A stretch of 64,000 nucleotides of DNA, from the IMG/VR virus record IMGVR_UViG_3300031787_000011; one strand, 5' to 3'. Shown here piece after piece: positions 11,402 to 58,878 of the stretch. The notes under the pieces were generated by a model, which saw only the letters and a list, made by a program, of their open reading frames with translations, was not told the origin of the DNA and did no database searches. The translations under genes and the position numbers were made by a program. The DNA comes from a virus. Within the stretch, counting starts at the first letter, position 1; each line of letters opens with the position of its first letter.

Positions 11402-12112
11402 TTATAATCCAAATCTACTTTTAGTTGCGTTGTAATTTTGTAATATTTCTTGTGCCGAAAGCGTTCGGTTATATTGTTTAATAGTTGATAAATTAATATT
11501 GGCGTCAGGTCCTCCTAAATCTCCACCTATATAATAGAGATATCCAGAACCTGGATCTACAGAACCTCCTGAAGTTATAGAAACGGCGGCACCTTGTTGT
11601 ATACCATTTTTATAAAAAGTTATATTATTTGCACTTCTATTAACGACAGCGCTAACATTCATCCAAGTTAGTACATCAGTAAATGTCGCAACAGTTGAAT
11701 AATAAATGTTTTGATCAATATCAGTGGTAGTATTTAAAAAAAAGGCTACAGTCCCAGCCGTAGTGTAATTTAATAAAAATAAGAATCCATGTAAATTAGC
11801 ACCTCTCGCCTCTACTATTCCATTATATCCATTATCTTTTTGGTATACCCATGCATCTATCGTAAAGCTACTTAATCCTGGATTTAAACTAGCTGGATTA
11901 CTTACACTAATATAGTCATCTGTGCCATCAAAAACAATAGTTCCGCCATTTATATTGCTAAATGTGGGTCCATTGGTTAATGTTCCAATGTAACCAGTTC
12001 CGCTTAAATCTTTCCAAGTGGTACCTGTGCCAGAATAACTATTTTTATCAGCAGCATCTAAACACAATACCAATCCACTTCTAACTATTTTTGGGCCTCT
12101 TATTATTGCCAT
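11402..12112 (-). CDS. LamG-like domain virion protein
   Basis: GLVLCLDAAD...WKDLSG...FDGTDDY...EILQNYNATKSRFGL; start taken at MAIIRG. Confidence 0.8.
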   Translation of the reverse strand: MAIIRGPKIVRSGLVLCLDAADKNSYSGTGTTWKDLSGTGYIGTLTNGPTFSNINGGTIVFDGTDDYISVSNPASLNPGLSSFTIDAWVYQKDNGYNGIVEARGANLHGFLFLLNYTTAGTVAFFLNTTTDIDQNIYYSTVATFTDVLTWMNVSAVVNRSANNITFYKNGIQQGAAVSITSGGSVDPGSGYLYYIGGDLGGPDANINLSTIKQYNRTLSAQEILQNYNATKSRFGL

Positions 12113-19750: not shown

Positions 19751-22700
19751 TTATCTTCTTTCTAAAGCAGTTACTCTAGATTTTAGCTCATTAATTTGCG
19801 CCTGCTGCTCTTTTATAGCTTCTGCTAACACTGCTGTTATTCTTGGATAATCTAAAGATCTAGCGTCTGGGCAATCATCATTTAATTTCCAAGTACTTAC
19901 TAGTTCGGGTAATACTTGCTCTAATTCTTGCGCAATAAATCCGATAACAGGAGTATTTAAACTATAACCGTCTCTTGTATTGTTTATGAATTCATTCCAT
20001 TCGTATGTTACGCCGCGCAACTTCATTACTTTTTGGAGCGCGTTTTCAATTGGTTTTATATTTTTCTTGAATCTTAAGTCTGATGACGTTGGGAATGAGG
20101 TCGCATGAGCATTACCATTAACATCCAAAGTATAAGCTGGGGTTACCCCTACACCTAATATATAAGTTCCGGGGCTAACTTGATTTGATAAAAATAATTT
20201 GTCTGAGCCGCTGTACCATCTTAATACATCACCAGCTACTCCATTTTGCAAGTAATTGTACCATTTTGTAGCACCTGCGTCTTGGAATTGAATGCCTCCT
20301 TGGTAACTAGTGCTTGATCTATTTATAATATAATAAGCTGCTCCCGCACCGCCGTTTAATGTCACAGTAGATGTTCCATCGTCAGTTTCAAGAGAATTTC
20401 CAAGAGTAGTAGTATTTGTAAATTTAGCTATTCTATTTGTTGTACCGCTTGCATTTGCTGCGCCTTGAGACCCAGTGCTACCTTGAGACCCAGTGCTGCC
20501 TTGAGAACCTAAGCTTCCAGTACCGCCAGTGCCGCCTTGAGATCCTATGGCTCCTGTACCGCCAGTACCACCTTGAGACCCAGTGCTACCTTGAGATCCA
20601 GTGCTACCTTGAGACCCAGTGCTGCCTTGAGAACCTAAGCTTCCAGTACCGCCAGTGCCGCCTTGAGAGCCTAAGCTTCCAGTACCGCCAGTGCCGCCTG
20701 TCCCGCCAGTACCCCCTGTTCCGCCAGTGCCGCCAGTGCCGCCTTGAGAACCTAAGCTTCCAGTACCGCCTGTTCCGCCAGTACCACCTGTTCCGCCAGT
20801 GCCGCCAGTGCCGCCTTGAGAGCCTAAGCTTCCAGTACCGCCAGTGCCGCCTGTCCCGCCAGTACCACCTGTTCCGCCAGTGCCGCCTGTCCCGCCAGTG
20901 CCGCCTGTTCCGCCAGTACCACCAGTGCCGCCTGTTCCGCCAGTAGCAGCGATAGAATCTAAAACATCGTAAGTGTTAGCGGAAGATAAATACCAAACTA
21001 ATGGGACCGTTGATGTTGGATTCGGAGTCCCATTTAAGGCGAAAAAGTTTGTAGAACTAAAAGTTCCTGTATTTCCGGCCTTTACGATCATGCAATACTC
21101 TTCCCATTTTCCTGTGCCAAGAGTAGAGGTAGTCCAATAAGATGTTCCGTTAGTACCAATAGAATTACTATGGAAACTAAGCGAATATCCAACAGGTATT
21201 TTAGCTACAAATACGCAAGCAAAAACAGAATTAGCTCTAGTATTATCCGCAAAATACCATCCTCCAAAATAAGGCGACGTTGCAGCAGAAGTATGAGTTA
21301 TTCTTACTACGTATCCGCTATTATTTGGAGCTCCTAAACCAGTCGAAGCTATTCTAGCTATAGATATGGTCCCTGTGGCGTTGTTATCGTAAATGTTTAT
21401 TCCATTTAAGTTATTATCAATGAATGTTTCGTTATTGTGTAAAGACTTGCCTCTTCTATAAGTATCAAAACCTATAGTAGACTGACCTAATTCTACAGTC
21501 GCCGCTGTGGCGAAAGAAGTTTGGCTCCTTATATTTAGATCTCCTATTAAATTTAAAGTTGATCCATTAAAAGTCAAATTAGACTCTCCATTAGCCCCGG
21601 CTCCTCCAGTGGCAGTAAGAATATAATCATTTACATTGTTAGTAAGCGCTACTGAAGAGCCTTGAGATCCTAAACTTCCAGTGCCGCCAGTGCCACCCGT
21701 TCCGCCAGTACCACCTGTTCCGCCAGTGCCGCCTTGAGAGCCTAAGCTTCCAGTACCGCCAGTGCCGCCTGTTCCGCCAGTACCACCAGTGCCGCCTGTT
21801 CCGCCTGTTCCGCCAGTACCACCAGTGCCGCCTTGAGAGCCTAAGCTTCCAGTACCGCCAGTGCCGCCTGTTCCGCCTGTTCCGCCAGTACCACCAGTGC
21901 CGCCTTGAGAACCCAAACTTCCAGTACCGCCAGTGCCGCCTGTTCCGCCAGTGCCGCCTGTTCCGCCAGTGCCGCCTGTTCCGCCAGTACCACCAGTGCC
22001 GCCTTGAGAACCCAAGCTTCCAGTCCCACCTGTGCCGCCAGATGTTCCAGATGTCCCAGATGTTCCAGAGCTTGCGGCATTGACTTTTGTCTTAACTGTT
22101 CCATCAGCGTCTATGACTAAACAATTTGTGCTTGAGCTTGCAGATATTCCAGTAAATCTGATAGTACCAGAAACATCTAAAGTATAAAGAGGGTTGCTTT
22201 GGCCTATTCCAACTTTATTATTTTTAAGAACAAAATCGCCGCTTCCATATTGCCCCAATACAACTCTATCATCAGCGAAGACTTCCATCACTGGCAATCC
22301 TGCACTATTATTTACAGACATTAATGAATCTGATAAATCATCAATTACAGAAAAGAGTGTCCCGTTTGTGCCGTCCGCCCTGAGTAATGTAGCGCCAGAT
22401 GTAGTTGAATTTAAATGCAATCTACCAAGAGGACTTGTAGTGCCGATACCAACATTACCACCATCAGCTTTGATGGTCATGCGGGTGGTCATTGTGCTAC
22501 TTACATTTTGTCTAAAATAAATATCTCCATAAACTTGAGAAGAAGTTACTGGATACGTATTATCAATGTAAGATACAGCGAAATTTGGATTATATATTAA
22601 ATGCAATCCATGAGCATCAGAAACTCCATAACTTATTTTTATGCCCTGATCGCTATTTGCAGAACTTGTTATTCTAACAAATGGATTTGCCCCGTGAATA

Positions 22701-25700
22701 TGCAGCAATGTAGCAGGGCTTGTTGTGCCTATGCCTACATTACCTCCTTGCAAGATTGTCAAAGTATCAGCGCCAACACTATTTTTAAAATAAGTTGCAG
22801 TGGAACTTCCAGCATAATAATTGGCGTTATAAATTCCAGATCCCACAACAAGATTTGTTCCAATATTAGCATCTCCATTAACGTCTAATTTCCGCGATGG
22901 ACCTGTTGAGCCAATGCCAACATTTCCATTACTTAACATTACAAAACTATTACCAAAATTAGATTTATAAGATAATGTAGCTAAATTATTACCAGTTCCT
23001 GTAGCGTCTGCATCTACCCAATTCCAACCATCTGCATAAGCATCATTATAAGCGCTACTGTACATGCTTTCAACATACAATTTAGGCCAGTAGCCCGGAC
23101 TTACTAATACAATACAAACTTTAAGTACGCCGGAAGAATCCCAGTCTTCGGCAGACAATTTAACTGTTGGGGCAAAGCTGCCTGCTGAAGTAATTGTCGC
23201 GTTATAAAAAGTGCTTAAATAATAATGCCAACAAATCATTAAATTAGTAGTTTCTGCGCTACCATATCTGAATCCTTTAATATTGATGGTAAAATCTGCT
23301 GCAGCAGATGCAAACGGAATTTTTGTTCTTATTTTTATGAAGCTTGGAGTAACTTGGCTATTTATATCCAAACCGATCATTGTTAATTTACTACCATCAC
23401 CAAAACTAGCTTCTCCATTAACAGCCAATTTAACAGATGGATTTGTTTCGCCTATTCCAACTTTATTGCCACTTATTATAAAATCTCCGCTATTAAATTG
23501 TCCGGCTTTTATTGTATTATTAGCGAATACTTCTAGTACAGGTAAACCTGCTATAGTATTTACAGACATCAAAGAATCAGATAAATCATCTGTTATTGAA
23601 AAAAGCGCTCCATTTGTGCCGTCGGCTTTCAATACTGTTTCGCCAGTAGTTGTTGAAACTACATGAAGTTTTCCGCTAGGTTGAACTGTACCGATGCCAA
23701 TACTTCTATTGTGCCCAACTGACATCATCACTTCAGGAGTAACATTTTGGACTCTATTTATAGCGAAGTCTATTCTTGTATCTGTATTTGTATTCCAATA
23801 AGGAGTAATTTGAGCGAGATAACCAGTACTAGCATCAAATCTTAATTGAAGGCCTTTGCCTTGAGTAGAGGCTACATCTAAATTAAAAAGCGCGCCTCCT
23901 AAATTGCCTAAGCCAAGATAACCATTACTATTAAGAACAAAAACATTACTTGCGTTTACGTTATTGTTATAAGCTATATTTAAATAATTAGTGTCAAGGC
24001 CAACAGAATAAAAGATGCCGTTGTTTCTTTGGAGTCTTAATACTTCAGAAAATGCCCCTAATGCATTATTAACATGTAAACCGCCAGAAGGAGTAGTTGT
24101 TCCTATGCCTATATTGCCATTAACATCTTGATATATTGTAGAATTATTAAGGGTACTCGCTGAATTAAATTTTGAGATATAACCCGAACTCCCTGACAAA
24201 CTTGCGCTAGACCCGGCGGATCCTGTACTTCCAAGGCTTCCAGTGCCACCAGTCCCGCCAGTCCCACCAGTACCGCCAGTGCCGCCAGTGCCGCCTGTTC
24301 CGCCAGTACCACCTGTTCCGCCAGTGCCGCCAGTGCCGCCTTGAGAGCCTAAACTTCCAGTACCGCCAGTGCCGCCTGTCCCGCCAGTGCCGCCTGTTCC
24401 GCCAGTACCACCTGTTCCGCCAGTGCCGCCAGTGCCGCCTTGAGAACCCAAGCTTCCAGTACCGCCAGTGCCGCCTGTTCCGCCAGTACCACCAGTGCCG
24501 CCTGTTCCGCCTGTTCCGCCAGTACCACCAGTGCCGCCTTGAGAGCCTAAGCTTCCAGTACCGCCAGTGCCGCCTGTCCCGCCAGTGCCGCCTGTTCCGC
24601 CAGTACCACCTGTTCCGCCAGTGCCGCCAGTGCCGCCTTGAGAACCTAAGCTTCCAGTCCCACCTGTGCCGCCAGATGTCCCAGAAGTTCCAGATGTTCC
24701 AGAACTTGCGGCGTTAACTTTCGTCTTTACTGTCCCGTCGGCATCTATCACCAAGCAATTTGTGCTTGAACTTGCGGATATTCCTGTAAATCTAATTGTA
24801 CCGCTAACATCAAGAGTATATAGGGGATTATTTTGTCCAATTCCTACTTTATTGTTTTTTAATACGAAGTCTCCACTGCCATATTGACCAAGAACAACTC
24901 TGTCATCTGCAAAAACTTCCATTACTGGGAGTCCTGCAGAATTATTAACAGACATTAAAGAATCACTCAAGTCATCAATTACTGAAAATATTGTTCCATT
25001 CGTTCCATCGGCGCGAATTAATGTGGCTCCTGCTGTTGTTGAATTTACATGCAATTTACCAGATGGAGTGGTCGTGCCTATGCCAACATTACCATCTGCT
25101 CGTATATAAACTGTATTATTATTTGATGAAGAATGAAATGCGATAGGGCCAGCATTATAGATATTAAAAGCGCCAGCGCCACCATAAGTAGTATATCCCG
25201 CGCTAGCTTTAAATATATAAGCCGAGCCTACTCCATTAGCTGTAAATTCTATTTCAGAATACTGATTAGCACTTGGGCTTTGCAGACTTAGTAGAGTTCC
25301 GTCTCCATATACTGTGAGTTTTCTATTTGGAGTTGTCGTACCTATACCAACATTATTTCCTGAGCTGATATATAAACTTGTATTTCCATTATTGATTAAA
25401 GAAGTAGAATTTAAGCTAAATAAAATAGAATTATTATTACCATCTATTACGGATGCGTATCTATCTGATATTATGCGAGAACTGGCAGCTATTTCTCCTA
25501 TCACGGACAAATTAGTGGCAGGATTTGTTGTCCCGATCCCGACATTTCCATTATTTTTTATTACCAATGCATTTATTACGTTCGCTGATGTAAATGAACC
25601 GGTAGCTACATCCATGAATCCAAATACTTTATAACCAACAGCCGGAGCAAAACCTTCGAAATATGGTCTATAAGCTTGAGTGGGTTCAACTGTACCAGCT

Positions 25701-28180
25701 AATTCATTAGTCCATGTTAAGTTTTGTCCATATGTGTACCAAGGACTATTTTGTGAAGAATGGAATGTATGTTCTGATGTTCTAAATCCTCCATTTAATC
25801 TTGTTAATTTTAAACCAACATTTGTTACAGAATCATTTCCAATTTGAGCATTGCCTTGTATTTCTAACTTTTGTGTAGGACTTGTTGTACCTATACCAAC
25901 ATTACCGCTATTATCAATAGTTAAAAATTCATTAGTAGCAAAACCATCTGCCATTGAAATTTTTAACTTATCAGAATCTGAGTTGTCTATCCCAACACTC
26001 CAATTTTGACCACCGGATGTCAAAAAATTAAGATATGGATCGTGTGTTGAATTTGAATTTAAAGTTGCAATTCGTATTTTAGCGTCACCTGAATTATTTG
26101 CAACTAATAATCCAACTGTAGGTGCTGAAAACAGACTTGTCCAATCAAAATTTGCAATCGCTGCAGATGAATTTACATGCAACTTTGCTAATGGACTACT
26201 TGTGCCTATACCAACACTTCCTGACACGAATAAATTTGAAGTTATATCAGTAGTTCCATTTATTTTAGAGCTACCAAATACTTCAAAAGTATTAGTAGAC
26301 TGAGAATGAGTGCCAAATCTTGCTAAATTTATGTATTGATTGGCGACGCTTCCTGCTTGTTGTAAATATAAAGGTATATTTGCAGAACGATCTATTTTTA
26401 CAAATCTATGTCTATATTGACCATTTGTATAAGCATCATGGTCCATTACTAAACCAAAAACTCCAGTAGCATTTGGGAATACATTAGAGTCAGCGATTCC
26501 TGATTGATCAGTAAATCCCATGTTTTTCAGGTGTAGTTGGCCTGATGGGTTATATATTCCTATCCCTACTGGGCCGCCGACTGGATTTAATAAAAGAGGA
26601 TAGGTTGCTGATAAACTAGTCTCATCTGTTGATTGCATCCATGCCCCCGACCCTCCTGCTCTAATACCAAAATCTAAAACTGCATTATCATTATTATTAC
26701 TTATTCTAAATATACCATTTTGATTTGCTCCAGAAATAGCAGGAGTACCGACTGGCCCATCAACTTGGAATTTTTGAGCAGGGGTAGTTATGTTTATCCC
26801 AATATTTCCATTAGCATTTTGATATATAACGGAATTATCAAGAGTACTTGATGAATTAAATTTTGAGATATAACCTGAGCTTCCTGACAAGCTTGCGCTA
26901 GATCCGGCAGATCCTGTACTTCCAAGGCTTCCAGTGCCACCAGTACCGCCAGTACCGCCTGTTCCACCTGTTCCGCCAGTGCCGCCTGTTCCGCCAGTGC
27001 CGCCTTGAGAGCCCAAGCTTCCAGTGCCACCAGTACCGCCAGTACCGCCTGTTCCACCTGTTCCGCCAGTGCCGCCTGTTCCGCCAGTGCCGCCTTGAGA
27101 GCCTAAGCTTCCAGTACCGCCAGTGCCTCCTGTCCCGCCAGTGCCGCCTGTTCCGCCAGTACCACCTGTTCCGCCAGTACCACCAGTGCCGCCTTGAGAG
27201 CCTAAGCTTCCAGTACCGCCAGTGCCGCCTGTTCCGCCAGTACCACCTGTTCCGCCAGTACCACCAGTGCCGCCAGTACCGCCTGTTCCGCCAGTGTCGC
27301 CTTGAGAGCCTAAGCTTCCAGTGCCGCCAGTACCACCTGTTCCGCCAGTACCACCAGTGCCGCCTGTTCCGCCAGTGTCACCTTGAGAACCTGTGGAACC
27401 AAAGGAGCCAGCGCTTCCAGAAGTGCCAGACGTACCAGACGTACCAGACGTACCAGACGAGCCAGAAACTGGAGCAACTGTAGTTACAATATAAGAATAA
27501 TGCTGAGATCCTTCTGTATAGAATTTTATTGTTCTACTTGCGTTATCTAAATTGTTGGCGTAAAATTTTATTATTATTCTATCAGATGCATTTAAGATTG
27601 TGCTTCCAAAAGTTACGTCTATTTTTGTTTCTACTGCTGTGGTATTATTTATTATCCAACCGATAGCGACTTCATCGCTTGTGAAAAGTAAAGTTTCTGT
27701 CCCGCCAGTATTACGTTTAGAAACAGTATAATAAACTTCTATTTCATCATTTTGAGCGTTCTTAGACAAATGAACGAAGGCTGCCCAAATTCCTCCCGCT
27801 ATTGTTGTGACATTTGGATCACTTGCATCAGTAATATAAGAAGATATTGGGGCGGCTGTTTGTAACGCTGTTAAATTTACTGTGACTATCTGTTCGGCAG
27901 CAGCAGTAATGTTTCTGGACATTTGCTTATAAGTACTAACCCCAGAAGAGACCGATTCGTTGAAAAAATAATTAATGCCGCCAGATAAACCATTTGAACC
28001 ACTAGAGCCAGAACTTCCACTTGTGCCACCCGACAAGACCCAAGCGCCATTTATTTTTAAATACTCTAAGAGAGTATCTGTCGCTTTATAAATTGCGCCG
28101 TCAAGGACTTGCGTGATTAAAGTATTCTTTTCAGAATCTAACCCGCAAAACCTATCTCCTGCATATCTTGTAATAGCCAT
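19751..28180 (-). CDS. Giant tail fibre (2809 aa) with four Gly-Gly-Thr repeat tracts and a C-terminal peptidase S74 intramolecular chaperone
   Basis: Many GNVGIGTTxP repeats; C-terminal SDLRFKKNI...GFIAQE...LDY...EAIKEQQ (S74). Confidence 0.9.
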   Translation of the reverse strand: MAITRYAGDRFCGLDSEKNTLITQVLDGAIYKATDTLLEYLKINGAWVLSGGTSGSSGSSGSNGLSGGINYFFNESVSSGVSTYKQMSRNITAAAEQIVTVNLTALQTAAPISSYITDASDPNVTTIAGGIWAAFVHLSKNAQNDEIEVYYTVSKRNTGGTETLLFTSDEVAIGWIINNTTAVETKIDVTFGSTILNASDRIIIKFYANNLDNASRTIKFYTEGSQHYSYIVTTVAPVSGSSGTSGTSGTSGTSGSAGSFGSTGSQGDTGGTGGTGGTGGTGGTGGTGSLGSQGDTGGTGGTGGTGGTGGTGGTGGTGGTGGTGSLGSQGGTGGTGGTGGTGGTGGTGGTGGTGGTGSLGSQGGTGGTGGTGGTGGTGGTGGTGGTGSLGSQGGTGGTGGTGGTGGTGGTGGTGGTGSLGSTGSAGSSASLSGSSGYISKFNSSSTLDNSVIYQNANGNIGINITTPAQKFQVDGPVGTPAISGANQNGIFRISNNNDNAVLDFGIRAGGSGAWMQSTDETSLSATYPLLLNPVGGPVGIGIYNPSGQLHLKNMGFTDQSGIADSNVFPNATGVFGLVMDHDAYTNGQYRHRFVKIDRSANIPLYLQQAGSVANQYINLARFGTHSQSTNTFEVFGSSKINGTTDITSNLFVSGSVGIGTSSPLAKLHVNSSAAIANFDWTSLFSAPTVGLLVANNSGDAKIRIATLNSNSTHDPYLNFLTSGGQNWSVGIDNSDSDKLKISMADGFATNEFLTIDNSGNVGIGTTSPTQKLEIQGNAQIGNDSVTNVGLKLTRLNGGFRTSEHTFHSSQNSPWYTYGQNLTWTNELAGTVEPTQAYRPYFEGFAPAVGYKVFGFMDVATGSFTSANVINALVIKNNGNVGIGTTNPATNLSVIGEIAASSRIISDRYASVIDGNNNSILFSLNSTSLINNGNTSLYISSGNNVGIGTTTPNRKLTVYGDGTLLSLQSPSANQYSEIEFTANGVGSAYIFKASAGYTTYGGAGAFNIYNAGPIAFHSSSNNNTVYIRADGNVGIGTTTPSGKLHVNSTTAGATLIRADGTNGTIFSVIDDLSDSLMSVNNSAGLPVMEVFADDRVVLGQYGSGDFVLKNNKVGIGQNNPLYTLDVSGTIRFTGISASSSTNCLVIDADGTVKTKVNAASSGTSGTSGTSGGTGGTGSLGSQGGTGGTGGTGGTGGTGGTGGTGGTGGTGSLGSQGGTGGTGGTGGTGGTGGTGGTGGTGGTGSLGSQGGTGGTGGTGGTGGTGGTGGTGGTGGTGSLGSQGGTGGTGGTGGTGGTGGTGGTGGTGGTGGTGGTGSLGSTGSAGSSASLSGSSGYISKFNSASTLNNSTIYQDVNGNIGIGTTTPSGGLHVNNALGAFSEVLRLQRNNGIFYSVGLDTNYLNIAYNNNVNASNVFVLNSNGYLGLGNLGGALFNLDVASTQGKGLQLRFDASTGYLAQITPYWNTNTDTRIDFAINRVQNVTPEVMMSVGHNRSIGIGTVQPSGKLHVVSTTTGETVLKADGTNGALFSITDDLSDSLMSVNTIAGLPVLEVFANNTIKAGQFNSGDFIISGNKVGIGETNPSVKLAVNGEASFGDGSKLTMIGLDINSQVTPSFIKIRTKIPFASAAADFTINIKGFRYGSAETTNLMICWHYYLSTFYNATITSAGSFAPTVKLSAEDWDSSGVLKVCIVLVSPGYWPKLYVESMYSSAYNDAYADGWNWVDADATGTGNNLATLSYKSNFGNSFVMLSNGNVGIGSTGPSRKLDVNGDANIGTNLVVGSGIYNANYYAGSSTATYFKNSVGADTLTILQGGNVGIGTTSPATLLHIHGANPFVRITSSANSDQGIKISYGVSDAHGLHLIYNPNFAVSYIDNTYPVTSSQVYGDIYFRQNVSSTMTTRMTIKADGGNVGIGTTSPLGRLHLNSTTSGATLLRADGTNGTLFSVIDDLSDSLMSVNNSAGLPVMEVFADDRVVLGQYGSGDFVLKNNKVGIGQSNPLYTLDVSGTIRFTGISASSSTNCLVIDADGTVKTKVNAASSGTSGTSGTSGGTGGTGSLGSQGGTGGTGGTGGTGGTGGTGGTGGTGGTGSLGSQGGTGGTGGTGGTGGTGGTGSLGSQGGTGGTGGTGGTGGTGGTGGTGGTGGTGSLGSQGGTGGTGGTGGTGGTGGTGSLGSQGSSVALTNNVNDYILTATGGAGANGESNLTFNGSTLNLIGDLNIRSQTSFATAATVELGQSTIGFDTYRRGKSLHNNETFIDNNLNGINIYDNNATGTISIARIASTGLGAPNNSGYVVRITHTSAATSPYFGGWYFADNTRANSVFACVFVAKIPVGYSLSFHSNSIGTNGTSYWTTSTLGTGKWEEYCMIVKAGNTGTFSSTNFFALNGTPNPTSTVPLVWYLSSANTYDVLDSIAATGGTGGTGGTGGTGGTGGTGGTGGTGGTGGTGGTGGTGSLGSQGGTGGTGGTGGTGGTGGTGSLGSQGGTGGTGGTGGTGGTGGTGGTGSLGSQGGTGGTGSLGSQGSTGSQGSTGSQGSTGSQGGTGGTGAIGSQGGTGGTGSLGSQGSTGSQGSTGSQGAANASGTTNRIAKFTNTTTLGNSLETDDGTSTVTLNGGAGAAYYIINRSSTSYQGGIQFQDAGATKWYNYLQNGVAGDVLRWYSGSDKLFLSNQVSPGTYILGVGVTPAYTLDVNGNAHATSFPTSSDLRFKKNIKPIENALQKVMKLRGVTYEWNEFINNTRDGYSLNTPVIGFIAQELEQVLPELVSTWKLNDDCPDARSLDYPRITAVLAEAIKEQQAQINELKSRVTALERR
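20460..20945 (-). repeat. 9-bp-unit coding tandem repeat (GGT)n/GSLGSQ/GSTGSQ, tract 4
   Basis: ccgccagtg/ccgcctgtt units visible; boundaries approximate. Confidence 0.9.
21655..22072 (-). repeat. 9-bp-unit coding tandem repeat (GGT)n/GSLGSQ, tract 3
   Basis: Visible in DNA and protein; boundaries approximate. Confidence 0.9.
24205..24705 (-). repeat. 9-bp-unit coding tandem repeat (GGT)n/GSLGSQ, tract 2
   Basis: Visible in DNA and protein; boundaries approximate. Confidence 0.9.
26900..27465 (-). repeat. 9-bp-unit coding tandem repeat (GGT)n/GSLGSQ, tract 1
   Basis: Visible in DNA and protein; boundaries approximate. Confidence 0.9.
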
Positions 28181-41194: not shown

Positions 41195-42275
41195 CTAATA
41201 CTTCCTCCTCAGTCAAACCAAAAATTCTGGCTTTAACGTCATCCATAGATGATAAGCGCCCGACTTCTGCTTTTAAAATTTCTCTTCTCATATCAGCCAT
41301 TTTTATCATTTCTTTTCTGGTTTCTTCATCTTTCCACATTTGAACTAGATTAAGAATAGAGGCATTTTCTTTTACTTGATTGGAAAGTCTTTCGCTACGC
41401 TTTACTTTTAAGTCATTAAGGAGTTTTTGCTGGCGAGTTACGCATTGATTGTATTCTGTGCGAGCAGAAGTAACTGCTTCGATTAATGGCATCGGAATTC
41501 TATTGCCAGCGGAGACTTCATTATCAATTTGCTCTTGAAGAGTTTGGATTGTGCGCTGAATATTCGCAGAGATTACAACTTCTGTAGATAATATGATATA
41601 TTGATCTACTTCTTCTTGCGTCAAATCTCCTTTATCATATGCGTATCTAATAAAACTACTCTCGAATAATTCTCTGTCTTCATTTGTGACATATGTTCCA
41701 ATCTGGTGGCCGAATCTAAATGTGTGAAGATAAGATATTAGAGAAGTTAGATCTTTTTTTTGCCTTGCTGTAAGCTTATCCTTGTCTAAACCGTTAAGAA
41801 CATATTTATTTACTCTAACTAAAGCTCTCTCAAGGTTTTTGGGTGGTTTATATTCGCCTTGGTCGTCTTCTCTGTCTGAAGTATTCGCTTGTATATTTTT
41901 AGGAAGAGTGTCAAGATATTCTTGGACGCTTCTTGCCTCTATGGAAAGATTTGTTAAACCATAATTATTAAAAAGTTCTCTAGCTAAGTCTACTGCCGTC
42001 ATCATAGCGGCATTATTAACAATATAGTCTTTCTGATCTTGAGTAAAATCTATTCTGTCTTTTGGAGTGTATTCGCTTTTAGTTTTGACTTTGAGTTCTC
42101 TAGAAGCTAAGAAATTTTTCACGGCCTTACCCTGTTTGCTTCTGCCATCTACATTTGGAATGTCTGGGAAAGCTATCTGGGTAAGCTCTTGCAAACTCGG
42201 AGGATTGTCTTTTCTGTCGTTCCAAGTTTTAATTATAATATCTTTTTGCTCTTGAGTTAAGTCTATGTCATTCAT
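41187..42275 (-). CDS. Hypothetical protein, candidate small terminase or packaging factor
   Basis: HTH-like N-terminus plus coiled coil; two genes upstream of terL. Confidence 0.4.
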   Translation of the reverse strand: MNDIDLTQEQKDIIIKTWNDRKDNPPSLQELTQIAFPDIPNVDGRSKQGKAVKNFLASRELKVKTKSEYTPKDRIDFTQDQKDYIVNNAAMMTAVDLARELFNNYGLTNLSIEARSVQEYLDTLPKNIQANTSDREDDQGEYKPPKNLERALVRVNKYVLNGLDKDKLTARQKKDLTSLISYLHTFRFGHQIGTYVTNEDRELFESSFIRYAYDKGDLTQEEVDQYIILSTEVVISANIQRTIQTLQEQIDNEVSAGNRIPMPLIEAVTSARTEYNQCVTRQQKLLNDLKVKRSERLSNQVKENASILNLVQMWKDEETRKEMIKMADMRREILKAEVGRLSSMDDVKARIFGLTEEEVLDG

Positions 42276-42952
42276 ACGTCTACTTCTCCATTAGCGAGGC
42301 TGTCTTTTGCTTTTTTTATTATAGATTTTTGTATATTACGAAGCTGTTTGTTGTAGGTCGTTTTGGCTTTTTTATCGTATTTAAAATTTAAATATTTGCA
42401 AACATATTCCTCGGTTTTATTTTGAATATATAATAAATCATACACTTTCCACTCTATCGGTTTTAAAACCTTTTTCATTCTTTCGTGTAAATTGGCCGCT
42501 GCTTTTTGTATATTGTATTCTGGAGTTGTTTGATTATTTATTTCGTAGGAATGGTCTTCTACAGATACAGTCATTTTTAAATCGTAAGCATTTTTCTTTG
42601 TTTTTAGCCAATTACTAAACATCGGGCATCCTTTGTCTTGCTTACCATATATTTTGCACTCATTTTCTCCTACCGCAGCAGCACATTTTAAACATGGGCG
42701 TGCATAATTACCATAATTATTTCTAATTAAGTTTTTAATCTGATTGGATATTATTCTATTTATCCAAGGAAGGATCGGTTTGCGCTCATCATAAAGGCCC
42801 CATTTTTTGTATATATGGAATCTAATAATTTGAGATACATCCTCAAAGTCAATCCAATTAAGCGCGGATAATGTCCATTTGTTTTTTCTCTTTACTATTT
42901 CCGTGTTAATTAAGTTGATATAATTTTCGAACTTTAATTTATTCTTCTTCAT
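42272..42952 (-). CDS. Phage sigma70/ECF-like sigma factor with a Cys-rich insert
   Basis: Region-2-like DFEDVSQ...YDERKPILPWINRIISNQIKNLIR; region-4-like LKPIEWKVYDLLY. Confidence 0.75.
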   Translation of the reverse strand: MKKNKLKFENYINLINTEIVKRKNKWTLSALNWIDFEDVSQIIRFHIYKKWGLYDERKPILPWINRIISNQIKNLIRNNYGNYARPCLKCAAAVGENECKIYGKQDKGCPMFSNWLKTKKNAYDLKMTVSVEDHSYEINNQTTPEYNIQKAAANLHERMKKVLKPIEWKVYDLLYIQNKTEEYVCKYLNFKYDKKAKTTYNKQLRNIQKSIIKKAKDSLANGEVDV

Positions 42953-44414: not shown

Positions 44415-45113
44415 TTAGAAGGTCCAGCGCAAACCACCAGCACCAACTACCTCGCCGTCCAATTCCTTGCGGGCAAAGTTAAAATTAGCAACATCAAAGT
44501 CATTCTTGATGTAAGTGGCCTCGGCAAATACAGTTAGATGCTCAAATAGAGTCTTGCTGATTCCAATCTTAGCAATAGCATTAGCAGAATCGCTGAGCTT
44601 AATGTACTCCAAAGCAGGAGTAACAGTGAACCAACCAAATACGCTGGTTGGGCGCTCAATGCCGACGCCATATCCATATTGATCTAGATTAATGTCATAT
44701 ACGCCCTTGGCATAAGGAGTAAAGAACTTGTTCTGTAGAGCAACCTTGATATTTGCTTCTGTGGAATTTGGGATATTTGGGTCGCCAGCTTGGTGACGAA
44801 TTACTGAGCCGTCCGTACGCAAGGTCACGCCTTCGAATACTTCAAAGCCCTTTCCTACATTGAAAGCCCAGTGGCTTTCATCGAGATTCTCGCTAACTGG
44901 GAGAATTGTTCCAGACACCCCTACATCAATGCCATAGTATGTTGAACCAAGACCAACTCCTGCAAAAGGAGTAGCCTTAGTACGAGACAAGCCGTTCACA
45001 AGGTACGTTGAGGTGTACCCGGCCTCAAAAGAGGCGCGAACCGGGGCATTTTGGGCAAAGGCCGCTGTAGTTAGTGTTGCAATTAATAGTGCTAGTTTTA
45101 AGAATTTATTCAT
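44415..45113 (-). CDS. Outer-membrane beta-barrel protein (porin-like)
   Basis: Sec signal (MNKFLKLALLIATLTTAAFA), amphipathic beta strands, C-terminal GLRWTF beta-signal. Confidence 0.8.
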   Translation of the reverse strand: MNKFLKLALLIATLTTAAFAQNAPVRASFEAGYTSTYLVNGLSRTKATPFAGVGLGSTYYGIDVGVSGTILPVSENLDESHWAFNVGKGFEVFEGVTLRTDGSVIRHQAGDPNIPNSTEANIKVALQNKFFTPYAKGVYDINLDQYGYGVGIERPTSVFGWFTVTPALEYIKLSDSANAIAKIGISKTLFEHLTVFAEATYIKNDFDVANFNFARKELDGEVVGAGGLRWTF

Positions 45114-45486
45114 AGCATATTATTGTTACACCTATATGAGATTTTGTCAAGAAAAAAAAAGACCCTTAGAGAGAAAAAGCCCCGGGTAGATTTTGTTTTT
45201 GTTATTTTTGTTATGCGGCCTATGGCCTCCCATATAAGTAAATTAAGGATAAATAAAGGATAAAGAGGGGAAGAGTTTTGTTTTTTTTGTTTTGTATCTT
45301 AAAAGACCCATAAGAAAGAAATGCCTCTGGGATTTTTTTATTTTGATTTATTAGAAGAATAAAATTGAAGAGGGGAGAATGAAAAAAGGGCCCCCCCGCG
45401 CGCCCCCAAACGGCCCGGATTGTACCATTTCAAAAAGGGGCTGTCAAGCAAAAAAAGAAAAAAAATTTCGCGCCCAGGCTGCGGAC

Positions 45487-45659
45487 TTGGCACGGTTCTT
45501 GAATCGCGCAAAAGTGGAGGGATTGGCACGGAAATTGACGGGGGAGCTTGGCACGATTTCTGTCGGGCAGGTTCCATGCCAAGGCATCGAATCCGGCCAC
45601 CGCGGACACTTTTCTCGAAGAAAAGTTCACTTTTCGGAAAGTTGGCACACTTTTATTGC
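45487..45659. promoter_or_regulatory. Cluster of five sigma54-type (-24/-12) TGGCAY boxes
   Basis: TGGCACG-N4-TTGA at 45488 and 45524; TGGCACG-N4-CTGT at 45549; minus-strand TGGCATG-N4-CTGC at 45581-45567; TGGCACA at 45643. Confidence 0.5.
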
Positions 45660-45807
45660 CCCGCTGGCGCATTTTGTCCAATTGCAAATCGAGTGCAAAT
45701 GCCAATAAATAACGATAACGTAACCGGGGCCGCTGTAGGGGTAGCGGAAGGCGTTTTCGATTCAAAAGGTAACGATAACGAAAGCATTGCAGCTCTAGGT
45801 ATGTTTT

Positions 45808-46018
45808 GGGGGGGTTGGGGGCAGGCAGGCAGGCGGGGCAGGCAGGCAGGCGGGGCAGGCAGGCAGGCAGGCAGGCAGGCGGGGGCAGGCAGGCGGGGGC
45901 AGGCAGGCGGGGGCAGGCAGGCAGGCAGGCGGGGGCAGGCGGGGGCAGGCAGGCGGGGGCAGGCAGGCAGGCAGGCGGGGGCAGGCGGGGGCAGGCAGGC
46001 AGGCGGGGCAGGGGCAGG
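45808..46018 (+). repeat. G-rich tandem repeat (GGCA)n interrupted by G4-5 runs
   Basis: About 200 bp with no T on the plus strand after 45816. Confidence 0.95.
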
Positions 46019-46023
46019 AAACG

Positions 46024-46052
46024 AAAAGGCCCCCGGCGGGGAGCCGGGGGCC
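46024..46052 (-). terminator. Intrinsic terminator after the small Ala-rich gene
   Basis: GGCCCCCGGC/GCCGGGGGCC stem plus TTTT on the minus strand. Confidence 0.85.
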
Positions 46053-46071
46053 GTGAGCGGGGGCCGGAGGT

Positions 46072-46335
46072 TTAGCCCTTCACCACTTTGAAGCTGTGGA
46101 AGCGGTCTTCCCGCTCCGCGATTGCGGCGACGGGCCGGACGGTGTAGATCGCCGCGACCTCCATCGAGCGGTCGTCGGACTTCAAAAGGACCGACTCGGC
46201 GGGGAGGCCGAGGGCCTCGGCGGCGACCTTGGCGGCCTTGGCGGCGGCGGCGGCAGCGGCGGCGGTGGCCCGCTTTTCCTCCAGCAGGGCGGCGAAGGCG
46301 GAAAGATCGGCGGCGGAAACGGTCTTGGTTTTCAT
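46072..46335 (-). CDS. Small Ala-rich hypothetical protein (87 aa, MKTKTVSAADL)
   Basis: Lies between a promoter/leader repeat and a terminator; GC3-rich codons. Confidence 0.7.
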   Translation of the reverse strand: MKTKTVSAADLSAFAALLEEKRATAAAAAAAAKAAKVAAEALGLPAESVLLKSDDRSMEVAAIYTVRPVAAIAEREDRFHSFKVVKG

Positions 46336-46355
46336 GCTGTAGCTTTTCGGATCGG

Positions 46356-46437
46356 ACAACCGGGAACCCCCCGGCGGGGGCCGGTGGCAACGGCCACCGA
46401 CAGGGACACTCTCCGCGATTGCCGTTCCGTTGTCAAA
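46356..46437 (-). promoter_or_regulatory. Promoter plus double-hairpin leader, copy 1
   Basis: TTGACA-17-GAGAGT, then CGGTGG/CCACCG and CCCCC/GGGGG hairpins; near-identical to 47563-47643. Confidence 0.75.
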
Positions 46438-46446
46438 CCCGAATTG

Positions 46447-46478
46447 AAAAGAAAAGGCCCGGGGTTTCCCCCGGGCTT
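46447..46478 (-). terminator. Intrinsic terminator after the DUF932 operon
   Basis: GCCCGGGG/CCCCGGGC stem plus TTTTCTTTT. Confidence 0.85.
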
Positions 46479-46481
46479 GCT

Positions 46482-46547
46482 TCACTCGTCTGACAGGACC
46501 GCCAGCACCGCCAGCAGCAGGGCCAGCAGCAGGGCCACCGCGATCAT
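46482..46547 (-). CDS. 21-aa hydrophobic micropeptide MIAVALLLALLLAVLAVLSDE
   Basis: ATGA overlap with the DUF932 stop; ends immediately before the terminator. Confidence 0.6.
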   Translation of the reverse strand: MIAVALLLALLLAVLAVLSDE

Positions 46548-47542
46548 GCGACGGTGACCGCCCCCCGGCGAGCATCCGCCAGCGCGTCCGCGCCTTCCGC
46601 CGCCATCCGATCCCATCCGCCCGGGGCCGCGATTGCCGCCGCAAACGCTGACTTGCGGTCAGCGTTGCCCCCGAATTCGGAGGACTGCCACCGGCCAAAC
46701 GCATCCCGACGGGAGGAGGAGCCGACCAGCCCTTGCCCGAAAACCTCGGTGAAACCGTTCAGAACGTCCAACCGGGACGTTCCCGCATTGCCCCGGCCCG
46801 ACCGGAAACCCGCGACCAGATCGTCCAGCAGGTTGCTGGACCGCGCCGACCGCAGATCCGCCCCGTTCCCGGCGAGGTCCGCCGCGTACACCGCCCGGGC
46901 CTTGTCCGCCGTAGCGGGGAGGGCTTCAAGCCCCCGCAGGGTCTCGTTCCAGATCTTCGCCATGCCTACCGTCTCGCCCAGAGCGCCCCGGGAAGCCTCC
47001 AGCCGTCCCGCGAAACCCTTGGTGAGTTTCGAGGAAAACAACGCCCGACCCGCCCGGGCAACCCGGACCGTGTTTGCGCACACGGCGACCGTGTGCGTCA
47101 AATTGAAGGATGGCGATTGGCTCTTGTCCAATCCTCCCGAGGCGGTCAGCTTGAACGCCTCCCCCCGAGGGGCGACCCCGGCCAACTCATCCAAGGAAAA
47201 GGTGACGAACCACCGCGACCTGTCGAAGATCATCCCCAACGATTCCACCCGGTGACCCGTCCCGGCCAGCACCTCTTCGAGGTAGGCCATAGCGTCCCGG
47301 GGAGTGAAAAGGGAATAAGAGGCCCCGAAAGCGGTCCCCACCGGAAGGCCATCGTCCGCCGAGATCGGAACGGCCATCCCGTCCCACTCCCGCAACTGGT
47401 CGCCCACCGTGTAGGTCAGGGGGGCGGCGATGATTTCCGGGAAAGCATCCGCCCCGATCACCGGGAGAATCCGGGTCTGACGGTGCCACGCCTGCTCAAG
47501 CCCGACTTGAAAGTCGCGGCTGGTTTCGAGTCCTGATGACAT
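46544..47542 (-). CDS. DUF932 / phage-plasmid LGT-associated protein
   Basis: AWH motif, VESLG, VAVCANTVRVA, GTSRLDVLNGFTE. Confidence 0.75.
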   Translation of the reverse strand: MSSGLETSRDFQVGLEQAWHRQTRILPVIGADAFPEIIAAPLTYTVGDQLREWDGMAVPISADDGLPVGTAFGASYSLFTPRDAMAYLEEVLAGTGHRVESLGMIFDRSRWFVTFSLDELAGVAPRGEAFKLTASGGLDKSQSPSFNLTHTVAVCANTVRVARAGRALFSSKLTKGFAGRLEASRGALGETVGMAKIWNETLRGLEALPATADKARAVYAADLAGNGADLRSARSSNLLDDLVAGFRSGRGNAGTSRLDVLNGFTEVFGQGLVGSSSRRDAFGRWQSSEFGGNADRKSAFAAAIAAPGGWDRMAAEGADALADARRGAVTVA

Positions 47543-47562
47543 AACTTTGGATTGCTGAACTA

Positions 47563-47643
47563 ACAACCGGGAACCCCCCGGCGGGGGCCGGTGGAACGCC
47601 CACCGACAGGGACACTCTCCGCGATTGCCTTTCCGCCGTCAAA
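47563..47643 (-). promoter_or_regulatory. Promoter plus double-hairpin leader, copy 2
   Basis: TTGACG-17-GAGAGT and the same hairpins with a different loop. Confidence 0.75.
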
Positions 47644-47705
47644 TCTAAATTGCGGGAAATTTCGCCCAGGTATGTTTCAGGGGTAAAACATTGTCCTGGG
47701 CTATC

Positions 47706-47876
47706 GGGGGCCGGGGGGCCAGCGGGGGCCGGGGGGGCCAGCGGGGGCTGGGGGGCCAGCGGGGGCTGGGGGGCCAGCGGGGGCCGGGGGGCCAGCGGGG
47801 GCCGGGGGGCCAGCGGGGGCTGGGGGGCCAGCGGGGGCCGGGGGGCCAGCGGGGGCCGGGGGCGGGGGCGGGGGCG
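47706..47876 (+). repeat. 18-bp G-rich tandem repeat GGGGGCYGGGGGGCCAGC
   Basis: About 8-9 copies visible. Confidence 0.95.
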
Positions 47877-48000
47877 CACTATTTGCCCCTATTTGCACAA
47901 AATTGCACAAACTTCATTCTATTTCCCTTTTTATTATCTAAAACTTGGCAAACAAAAAACCCCTCTATTTCTAGAGAGGCTGGCATTATTTCTTTATTTA

Positions 48001-50904: not shown

Positions 50905-51531
50905 TTAGTGGTACTTATAGGCCACGTTGGAGACGGTTTTATCCCAACAGGCTCGGCATTGCAAGCACTTGTTTCCCTGACTTCCTGCTGGGCAGGTCCA
51001 GCTTGTCTTGGAGACCGAGGAGGTGACAACCCCCATGCGGTTTGCCAACGCCACCGGAGGAGGGCCGTCGATCATGTAGCCCGAGATCCTGATAGTCAGG
51101 TTTTCTGGCAATTTATTCTTTGCGGTGAATTCTGAAACAATTCTAAATTCCTTGGTAGGCAACCAGAATTTGATGTTTGGGAGGTTCTTTGCAATCTGGG
51201 CGATTTGTTCTAAATGCGCCAAAGATTGAATGTCGCCAGAGTCGAACCAGCGGAAGTAGCCGCTGCCCTCTGTCCCAGAGATTGCAAGGGTCATTGCCTC
51301 AACCCAGTCAGGATTTGAAAGGGAGTCGAACCTGCGAGCCAAGGCATTGACTACGTTGGGCGTAGGGTAAAAACCCCGCATTGCATAGCATTTATTGCAA
51401 ACGCTAGTTTTGAGCTTTGCCAGCTTGGACCCCATCTTGCAGTTCTTGGCCGGGATGGACCAAGAGTGGCAGGGCATTTTGCTGGGCTTGGAGAAGCCCC
51501 CGATCTTTTCGATTGCTTGAAGTAGCGTCAT
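50905..51531 (-). CDS. GP88-family (Cys-rich, radical-SAM-like) phage protein
   Basis: SKPSKMP, C..G...VC.KCYA, FRWFDSGD, WLPTKE, NLTIRIS, CPA...C.QCRACW, VAYKYH. Confidence 0.8.
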   Translation of the reverse strand: MTLLQAIEKIGGFSKPSKMPCHSWSIPAKNCKMGSKLAKLKTSVCNKCYAMRGFYPTPNVVNALARRFDSLSNPDWVEAMTLAISGTEGSGYFRWFDSGDIQSLAHLEQIAQIAKNLPNIKFWLPTKEFRIVSEFTAKNKLPENLTIRISGYMIDGPPPVALANRMGVVTSSVSKTSWTCPAGSQGNKCLQCRACWDKTVSNVAYKYH

Positions 51532-58590: not shown

Positions 58591-58878
58591 TTAAATCTTT
58601 TTAATATGTTTAGGATGTACAGCAGTCCACTTGTTGAAACGGTCAGAGTTATACTTTTTAATGGAAGTGTCAAGTGCGGAACCCCATCTCTTATCTTTGC
58701 TTGCCCACATTATTTTGCACGTTTTGCTACCTTGATATAGCTCGCCATTAGAGAATTTAAATCCATCAAAGCGGTTCCCATAATGATCAAAAACTAAATA
58801 CCCTTTCTTGAGAAGACGGTTAGCCTTTGCCGCCTTCCGCAAGATGTTGCGCCATCGTGCCTTCTCCAGTCTATTCAT
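58591..58878 (-). CDS. Basic hypothetical protein (MNRLEK...)
   Basis: Promoter TTGCCT-17-GAGACT 7 nt before the ATG. Confidence 0.6.
   Translation of the reverse strand: MNRLEKARWRNILRKAAKANRLLKKGYLVFDHYGNRFDGFKFSNGELYQGSKTCKIMWASKDKRWGSALDTSIKKYNSDRFNKWTAVHPKHIKKI

Follow-up and report, generated by a model that had tools for sequence, protein, structure and literature searches.

The stretch analysed here, a 64,000-nt window (IMG/VR record IMGVR_UViG_3300031787_000011) of an AT-rich uncultured freshwater (lake) phage with a genome of about 176 kb, contains a GC-rich island at 45385-47900 that carries a DUF932 gene, a micropeptide gene and a gene for an 87-residue protein. In a sliding profile, the GC content lies between 0.29 and 0.46 as far as 45250, begins to climb at 45400, peaks at 0.70-0.77 over 45700-46300 and stays at 0.63-0.73 as far as 47950; from the end of the island to about 52600 it varies between 0.33 and 0.59, and thereafter between 0.24 and 0.35. 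The composition thus switches from ~37% to 65-77% GC, with 68.7% in the island at 45700-47900 versus 37.2% in the remainder of the window, and 36 of the window's 44 runs of at least five G sit in the island. Every long open reading frame (ORF) of the window is carried by the minus strand. Along this strand, from right to left, the parts follow each other as a terminator, a G-rich array (array 2), an imperfect hairpin, a promoter-leader, the DUF932 gene, the micropeptide gene, a terminator, a further promoter-leader (copy 1), the 87-residue ORF, a terminator, array 1, 37-nt repeats, TTGGCAC boxes and the promoter of the phoH operon. A first, sequence-only reading had described an abrupt GC switch near 45385 and listed this order of parts; the GC profile confirmed the former, and our reading of the sequence together with the scans confirmed the latter. 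The window contains no tRNA gene, and an Rfam scan of 44-53 kb gave no credible RNA family.

The largest gene of the island (46544..47542, minus strand) encodes a 332-residue DUF932 protein (PF06067, TIGR03299-like), recognised by Pfam, PHROG and a structural model. The Pfam match (E=4e-7; 30.4 bits for a cut-off of 23) aligns residues 80-260 with positions 5-186 of the 227-position profile, and PHROG 1221 is matched with E=5.5e-13. The score against TIGR03299 (29.9 bits) is far under the cut-off of 110.7, and the protein therefore represents a divergent, phage-only branch of DUF932. The only counterparts of its AlphaFold2 model, which has a predicted local distance difference test (pLDDT) score of 86.6, are viral DUF932/TIGR03299 proteins that are themselves uncharacterised (Foldseek E down to 1e-12), and the structural matches in BFVD are likewise viral DUF932 proteins. 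Foldseek found nothing in the PDB at E<=0.001, a wide VIA-align search gave a best Z of 5.5, which is in the noise range, the DUF932 profile matched no PDB sequence, and a search of the ESM Atlas returned only DUF932. The literature assigns no function to the family.

The stop codon of the DUF932 gene overlaps, as ATGA, the ATG of a hydrophobic micropeptide of 21 residues (46482..46547, minus strand). Among the closer relatives checked, 19 of 22 keep the micropeptide, each time with a four-base NTGA overlap. By its reading frame and hydrophobicity, it is a predicted membrane micropeptide translationally coupled to DUF932. The third gene (46072..46335, minus strand), found by ORF reading and kept in 13 relatives, encodes the 87-residue protein, which has no Pfam, NCBIfam or PHROG match. 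Its AlphaFold2 model (pLDDT 57) is too poor for a structure search, Atlas leads stay below 0.9, and the low-confidence prediction consists of a helix, a run of eight alanines, a second helix and three strands. The ratio of nonsynonymous to synonymous divergence (dN/dS) is 0.10-0.29 for DUF932 and 0.16-0.31 for the 87-residue gene, 0.10-0.31 over the two; judging by these values, both genes are under purifying selection.

Each of the two transcription units starts with the same module. In copy 1 (46336..46436, minus strand), a promoter TTGACA-N17-GAGAGT (46436..46408) is followed by a leader of about 70 nt with two hairpins; in copy 2 (47543..47642, minus strand), the promoter is TTGACG-N17-GAGAGT (47642..47614) and the leader again folds into two hairpins. 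The copies, detected in repeat, promoter and fold scans, form an 84-nt direct repeat of 80% identity. The promoter-leader is kept before both genes in the relatives with a consensus fold of two hairpins, and across the 23 leaders compared, hairpin 1 shows compensatory double changes at 4 pairs. There is no clear Shine-Dalgarno sequence before the ATG of either cassette. Each unit is closed by an intrinsic terminator on the minus strand identified by a terminator scan, made of 10 G-C pairs and a T-run after the 87-residue gene (46028..46052) and of 8 G-C pairs and a T-run after the DUF932-micropeptide operon (46457..46476). A short T/A-rich tract follows each terminator, directly upstream of a −35 box. 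On the right, the same scan placed the terminator of the upstream AT-rich early gene at 47958..47981 (minus strand), which is the boundary of the island. Similar promoters are present elsewhere in the window, TTTGCA-N17-TAGAGT at 51531 and TTGCCT-N17-GAGACT at 58878, so that the promoter style is indeed common to the phage's other early promoters, as had been claimed.

Two minisatellites bracket these units. Array 1 (45820..46012) combines CAGG and CGGGGG units with periods of 4, 14 and 46 (score 259) and is G-rich on the plus strand, that is, the antisense strand of the genes. Array 2 (47705..47876) is an 18-mer repeated 8.7 times, unrelated to array 1, and holds all five canonical plus-strand G-quadruplex motifs of the window. 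The imperfect hairpin (47665..47700), read from the sequence, separates it from the DUF932 promoter; in L083 and L086-L094 (L numbers designate related loci), a strong terminator, formed by a GC hairpin and a T-run, occupies this place. Apart from arrays 1 and 2, no non-coding tandem array with a high score occurs in the 64 kb; the remaining arrays of the window are collagen-like coding repeats (period 9 and multiples) of a 2809-residue ORF at 19751-28180 on the minus strand.

We applied Tandem Repeats Finder to 34 relatives. Most members of the clade have GC-rich arrays beside the DUF932 unit (DUF932 gene of 57-68% GC), the less GC-rich islands have short arrays or none, and distant relatives, with a DUF932 gene of 42-52% GC, have no arrays. 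Across the 34 relatives the units, with periods from 4 to 46, share no common motif, and we rejected the idea of a Chi-like or other common motif on this ground. Coding repeats were rejected as well, the periods in relatives being mostly not multiples of three. L092 and L099 carry a near-identical unit on both sides of DUF932. Where the window and L077 can be aligned, their arrays are 96-99% identical; the arrays are thus stable in the short term and turn over during longer times. These facts fit either selection on composition and structure or slippage in unconstrained GC-rich spacers, and do not fit a sequence-specific signal. A literature search on G-rich tandem repeats in phage genomes returned nothing relevant.

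An IMG/VR scan with PhoH gave 65 related loci, and a metagenome scan gave 32 further loci. The DUF932 homologs form 113 clusters at E<=1e-5, all metagenomic, and at least 30 independent lake-metagenome assemblies contain the island. L058, with a PhoH 80% identical to that of the window, has the same order of parts at 63-73% GC and one extra gene of 130 residues; in L017 (PhoH 89%), the parts follow in that order too, at 55-60% GC, and the arrays are shorter. Contigs from several lakes bridge the island to its phage flanks (L067, L070, L076, L077, L081, L089, L091 and L096), and the position beside the phoH operon is fixed in every bridging relative of the clade. The sequence-only reading had held that the island looks native, and the recurrence of identical joins in independent assemblies from different lakes bears this out; an equivalent island does lie upstream of the phoH/terminase block in L058, L017, L067, L070, L076/77, L091 and L096. 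Relatives of the L012 type lose homology at 45394 and have other small-gene cassettes there instead, and DUF932 is missing altogether from a 170-kb relative whose PhoH is 55% identical. The island is therefore a feature of one clade. The corresponding region of L012 (5200-9100) is a row of small genes of ~55% GC with their own terminators, separated by AT-rich TTA-type simple-sequence spacers, one of which contains a GT/GC-rich low-complexity tract. PhoH itself has 257 residues in the window; in L067 (13023-14858) and L070 (4830-6665) it has 611 residues and a weak LAGLIDADG_3 match, which suggests an intein or a homing-endonuclease insertion.

We then considered the composition of the island within the clade. 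The GC content at third codon positions (GC3) of the DUF932 gene is 0.64-0.87 throughout the clade, whereas the flanking phage DNA has a GC content of 0.33-0.45. In L058, the DUF932 protein retains only 56% amino-acid identity, yet GC3 is 0.84. Synonymous divergence (dS) exceeds 1 between the window and L091, L096, L017 and L058, and the phage's own bias is towards AT, with a GC3 of 0.31-0.40 in the large terminase and phoH genes. With synonymous sites saturated in an AT-biased phage, a passive import would have lost its GC. The composition of the island is thus maintained rather than the legacy of a recent transfer. In phages, islands of deviating composition are as a rule taken for recent imports; here, an excess of about 30 percentage points over the genome GC has persisted over saturating divergence, and a lasting force must hold it. 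Selection for the use of host tRNAs, a role at the DNA level and biased recombination are candidates for such a force.

The tRNA genes provide a clue on this point. As a whole-genome stand-in for the phage of the window we used G001, the IMG/VR contig behind L001 (174,551 bp, 100% complete according to CheckV), which is 93-95% identical in the flanks and in which no other 500-bp window reaches 0.60 GC. G001 encodes ten tRNAs (L108, G001:26800-39500). Two have the anticodon CAU, and eight are cognate to A-ending codons: Arg-UCU, Leu-UAA, Glu-UUC, Ile-UAU, Lys-UUU, Thr-UGU, Gln-UUG and Gly-UCC, which read AGA, UUA, GAA, AUA, AAA, ACA, CAA and GGA, respectively. The share of these eight codons in their codon families is 56% for late genes, 39-45% for the remaining genes, 23% for the intermediate early genes (48-52 kb) and 10% for the island, from which AGA, UUA, AUA and ACA are entirely absent. 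Such a pattern would fit a host that is GC-richer than the phage and island genes readable by the host tRNA pool alone. The earlier proposal that the first genes match a GC-rich host in a staged-entry module holds in part: the composition and the avoidance of the phage-tRNA codons are consistent with a GC-richer host, and the staged entry is not supported. The large terminase shares about 23% identity with its counterpart in any cultured phage, and neither it nor PhoH exceeds 35% in such a comparison; consequently, they give no clue to the host.

The comparison with L077 revealed how genes are exchanged within the island. Identity is 96-100% from 44200 through array 1, falls to 66-88% at 46100-47500 and recovers to 93-99% over the DUF932 leader, array 2 and the sequence after it. 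Likewise, dS is 0.04 in the outer-membrane-protein gene of the phoH operon, 0.40 in phoH and 0.82 in DUF932. A dip of identity between conserved modules indicates that the intervening genes were replaced by a divergent allele. In L058, the extra 130-residue gene stands between duplicated terminator and promoter-leader modules, and in L067 and L070 the 87-residue gene is absent.

Altogether, we consider it probable, though well short of certain, that the island is a native, hyperplastic region of early-type cassettes that is kept GC-rich, and that it is neither a genome end nor foreign DNA. Two self-contained minus-strand cassettes make up the region, one for DUF932 and its coupled 21-residue membrane micropeptide and one for the 87-residue protein, each equipped with a promoter of the host sigma70 type, a leader of 70 nt containing two stable hairpins, and an intrinsic terminator made entirely of G-C pairs. 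The terminator, promoter and leader modules may isolate the transcription of each gene. They may also offer short conserved homology through which recombination among co-circulating relatives inserts, removes or replaces genes. With a GC3 of 0.8-0.9, the island genes avoid the A-ending codons of the phage tRNAs and could thus be translated from the host tRNA pool right after infection of a GC-richer host. The arrays are fast-evolving minisatellites in the outer spacers, responsible for the breaks in short-read assemblies; they might in addition serve as boundary elements, in the form of structure-forming barriers to read-through, or as substrates for recombination.

Several observations weigh against this interpretation. 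The label "early" derives from promoter type and position only, and the −10 hexamers (GAGAGT, GATTGT, CATTGT) are far from the consensus. A high GC3 by itself lowers the share of A-ending codons, so that codon use and composition do not count as independent observations. Moreover, the non-coding parts of the island are GC-rich too, and selection on codons is therefore not the whole explanation. In most arrays the strand rich in C is the sense strand of the genes, but in the subgroup L092, L095, L067 and L070 the sense strand is G-rich; such a non-universal polarity weakens a single structural role, and a neutral origin by slippage fits it. Finally, the early-promoter/stem-loop cassettes (PeSLs) of other phages, to which we compare the modules below, are by definition AT-rich and have one stem-loop, so that the likeness would be one of analogy and not of membership.

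A more elaborate version of the native-region reading is conceivable. Host-like GC could have been selected for immediate expression independent of the phage tRNAs and for escape from the nucleoid proteins that silence AT-rich DNA, and the G-quadruplex/i-motif minisatellites would then be fences selected for shape against read-through or the spread of silencers. We regard this version as unlikely. If it were true, the same property would systematically hide the locus from short-read phage genomes.

The left part of the island deserves separate attention, as a replication origin or a packaging (pac) site might be sought there. The G-rich junction at 45385..45418 (minus strand) is the left edge of the island and holds the transcript start of the phoH-operon promoter. 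It is kept in L001, L005, L017, L058 and L077, and homology to the island-less L012, L015, L018 and L038 stops within it, at 45394. The promoter itself (45419..45447, minus strand), found by a promoter scan and kept in relatives, is a near-consensus sigma70 promoter, TTGACA-N17-TACAAT, with 11 of 12 matches. Read as 45447..45419, it faces an operon made of the gene for an outer-membrane beta-barrel protein, phoH, a Sigma70_r2 gene and then the large terminase gene. The phage sigma factor gene (42272..42952, minus strand), downstream of phoH, is extracytoplasmic function (ECF)-like according to NCBIfam. Some 300 bp downstream of the first promoter, another good one of the sigma70 type, TTGACA-N17-AACAAT (45122-45150, minus strand), stands directly before the outer-membrane-protein gene. 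This gene (44415-45113, minus strand; upstream of phoH) encodes a 232-residue protein that resembles an outer-membrane beta-barrel. Its counterpart in L058 (3181-3906) has a signal-peptide-like N-terminus and a C-terminal Phe; the protein is 99% identical in L077 and just 40-49% identical in other relatives. A protein of this predicted type points to a host with two membranes.

Upstream of this promoter, a motif scan and the sequence reveal four TTGGCAC boxes and two inverted TGCCAA (45487..45660, plus strand). Four of the window's ten matches to TTGGCAC thus cluster within 160 bp (45487-45648), and the first box is kept in relatives as TTGGCA[CT]G. These boxes had been called sigma54-like. 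A sigma54 promoter has GG at −24 and GC at −12 (TGGCAC-N5-TTGC); in the window, the −12 GC is missing from three of the four boxes, which read TTGA, TTGA, CTGT and TATTG at this place. The box of the L017-type relatives reads TTGGCATG and gives way to AT-rich sequence, and among the relatives only L058 has GC at the correct spacing, so that the −12 element is not conserved either. A sigma54 promoter is therefore not supported, and the earlier description is a weak one. Next to the boxes, two 37-nt direct repeats (45703..45799; repeat family D8), which contain the motif TAACGATAACG, surround a short hairpin-capable motif, GCCGCTGTAGGGGTAGCGG, common to the window and L058. In L067, the DNA that separates the arrays from the outer-membrane-protein gene contains, at 11541-11795, about ten 20-bp repeats of the TGTGAGA...TGATATCA type; they differ from the TTGGCAC boxes yet occupy the same place.

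If this part of the island were an origin or a pac site, the boxes and TAACGATAACG would be sites to which an initiator or the small terminase is drawn, and the G-rich array would give rise to an R-loop or to an unwinding barrier. In favour of it are the clustered and partly conserved repeats in non-coding DNA, the different 20-bp repeats, about ten in number, that L067 has there, and the position at a boundary between early and late genes with the terminase genes near. On the other hand, no plus-strand sigma70-like promoter that could yield a G-rich RNA was found, and the 174.5-kb relative shows neither a GC-skew turning point nor a strand switch here. Moreover, at 40-200 bp upstream of the consensus promoter that serves the sigma-factor operon, the boxes could be plain regulator sites of that operon. 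According to these results, an origin or pac site is quite unlikely. We interpret the boxes as a putative series of regulator-binding sites; binding of an initiator or of the small terminase is less likely.

A recent transfer from a GC-rich host, a plasmid or another phage, with a composition that has not yet drifted, is very unlikely for the reasons already given on GC3, which stays high across synonymously saturated relatives down to 56% amino-acid identity. This hypothesis does draw on the extreme contrast between 69% and 37% GC, on the family descriptions, according to which DUF932 is typical of mobile elements, and on the adjoining early genes, which also exceed the genome GC. However, the place beside the phoH operon is fixed, the promoters are of the phage's style, and no integrase or transposase family was matched among the ORFs scanned at 42-56 kb, in agreement with the sequence-only reading. 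Together with flanking arrays that are unrelated to each other, these features are not those of a mobile element or genomic island. Moreover, a scan of 185,579 species genomes for DUF932 gave a single match of 67% identity, L107 (VFLE01000011.1), which is phage-like. It is a 6-kb contig in a metagenome-assembled genome of Candidatus Shapirobacteria and is probably mis-binned phage DNA. Among cultured phages, there was no nucleotide match for the island or its flank and no tblastn match for DUF932.

The sequence-only reading had proposed that the island is a genome end, the first-injected part of a staged entry. In this hypothesis, the island would be the physical end of the packaged DNA or a first-entering terminal repeat, and the arrays would be ejection-stop or packaging signals. 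Indeed, many PhoH loci lie on contigs that end 1.1-2.2 kb upstream of phoH, at least 12 relatives' contigs begin inside a GC-rich array at this distance, the large terminase gene is about 5 kb from the island, which is upstream of it, and the arrays can form G-quadruplexes. However, contig ends fall inside the tandem arrays to the left and to the right of the island, which is what breaks in a de Bruijn graph would produce. L066, a JGI contig of 1,796 bp with 100% identity to the island, runs out in array 2 at one end and in array 1 at the opposite end. In most samples the island is assembled as an orphan contig of 1.2-2 kb, and 60 of the 82 DUF932 clusters at >=66% identity are known only from contigs of at most 2.2 kb. 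G001 starts at window position 47841, in array 2, and ends in array 1. It follows that the genome map is a circle of about 176.4 kb from which G001 lacks only the island; a genome rated complete by CheckV is thus without the 1.8-kb DUF932 island, both its ends falling in arrays. Since assembly of a collapsed terminal repeat would likewise give a circle, a circular map is compatible with a genome end as well. Yet at least ten independent contigs, and the window itself, read through both arrays.

Other observations also speak against a terminus. The units and the strand polarity of the arrays vary between relatives, which does not correspond to a conserved stop or packaging signal, the less GC-rich islands have short arrays or none, and L012-type phages do without the island altogether. 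The large terminase gives only a weak match to the T4 type (headful). In G001, the island lies in the middle of a block of one-strand genes that runs from 110 kb through the contig ends to 60 kb, and no GC-skew turning point is found there; of the GC jump and the skew change that plots might show, only the former is present. With contig ends in the arrays on both sides and a circular map, the apparent genome ends are, on the evidence of the contigs, assembly breaks caused by the arrays, and the proposal of a genome end is not supported. We consider a physical end very unlikely. Lastly, a chimeric assembly of phage and host DNA, which the compositional jump alone could suggest, has virtually no probability, since the same joins occur in contigs assembled independently from several lakes and G001 ends in both arrays.

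The native, GC-rich cassette region that we favour has consequences beyond this phage. The minisatellites drop the locus from most short-read assemblies, a concrete blind spot of viromics. The locus is also a compact natural system, with promoter, covarying leader, DUF932 and micropeptide, in which the role of the widespread DUF932 family may be probed.

How does the island compare with known systems? Like the first-step-transfer region of T5, it is a short block of early genes beside repeat-rich non-coding DNA. It differs from it in that nothing places the island at a DNA end, the apparent ends being assembly breaks, no homologs of the T5 pre-early genes were seen, and its repeats are simple tandem arrays whose units differ between relatives. 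The put antitermination RNAs of HK022, which directly follow a promoter, also have two adjacent stem-loops at the 5' end of the transcript, a pair that in the island is duplicated before two units. In contrast to put, the island leaders have no sequence or Rfam match to these RNAs, and each unit is closed at once by a strong terminator while the next has its own promoter. Phage tRNA sets that offset differences in codon usage between an AT-rich phage and a GC-richer host are another parallel, as the A-ending codons read by the tRNAs here abound in late genes and are rare in the island; unlike the usual case, the contrast is concentrated in one 2.5-kb island (GC3 0.8-0.9) and includes non-coding DNA. 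Within the DUF932/TIGR03299 family, the island member is distinguished by its coupling to a membrane micropeptide.

The closest parallel is with the PeSLs, cassettes that T4-like phages carry repeatedly in their hyperplastic regions (Arbiol et al. 2010, PMC2839356; Comeau et al. 2014, PMC4122927), where they insulate transcription and mediate gene swapping. The island is GC-rich, whereas PeSLs are AT-rich; it has two covarying hairpins in a 70-nt transcribed leader and separate terminators, whereas a PeSL has one stem-loop; long G-rich minisatellites bracket it, and the phage is not T4-like. The similarities are in the organisation. A sigma70-type early promoter and a stable G/C stem-loop are repeated before small genes of unassigned function, in the island as an 84-nt repeat with TTGAC(A/G)-N17-GAGAGT and two hairpins. 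By analogy, neighbouring transcription units would be insulated from each other and early transcription would be kept out of the late genes. In both cases, gene gain, loss and replacement between close relatives are located at the modules, as seen here in the identity profile with L077, the extra gene of L058 and the gene loss in L067 and L070. We therefore propose that modular shuffling of the PeSL type may extend beyond the T4-like phages.

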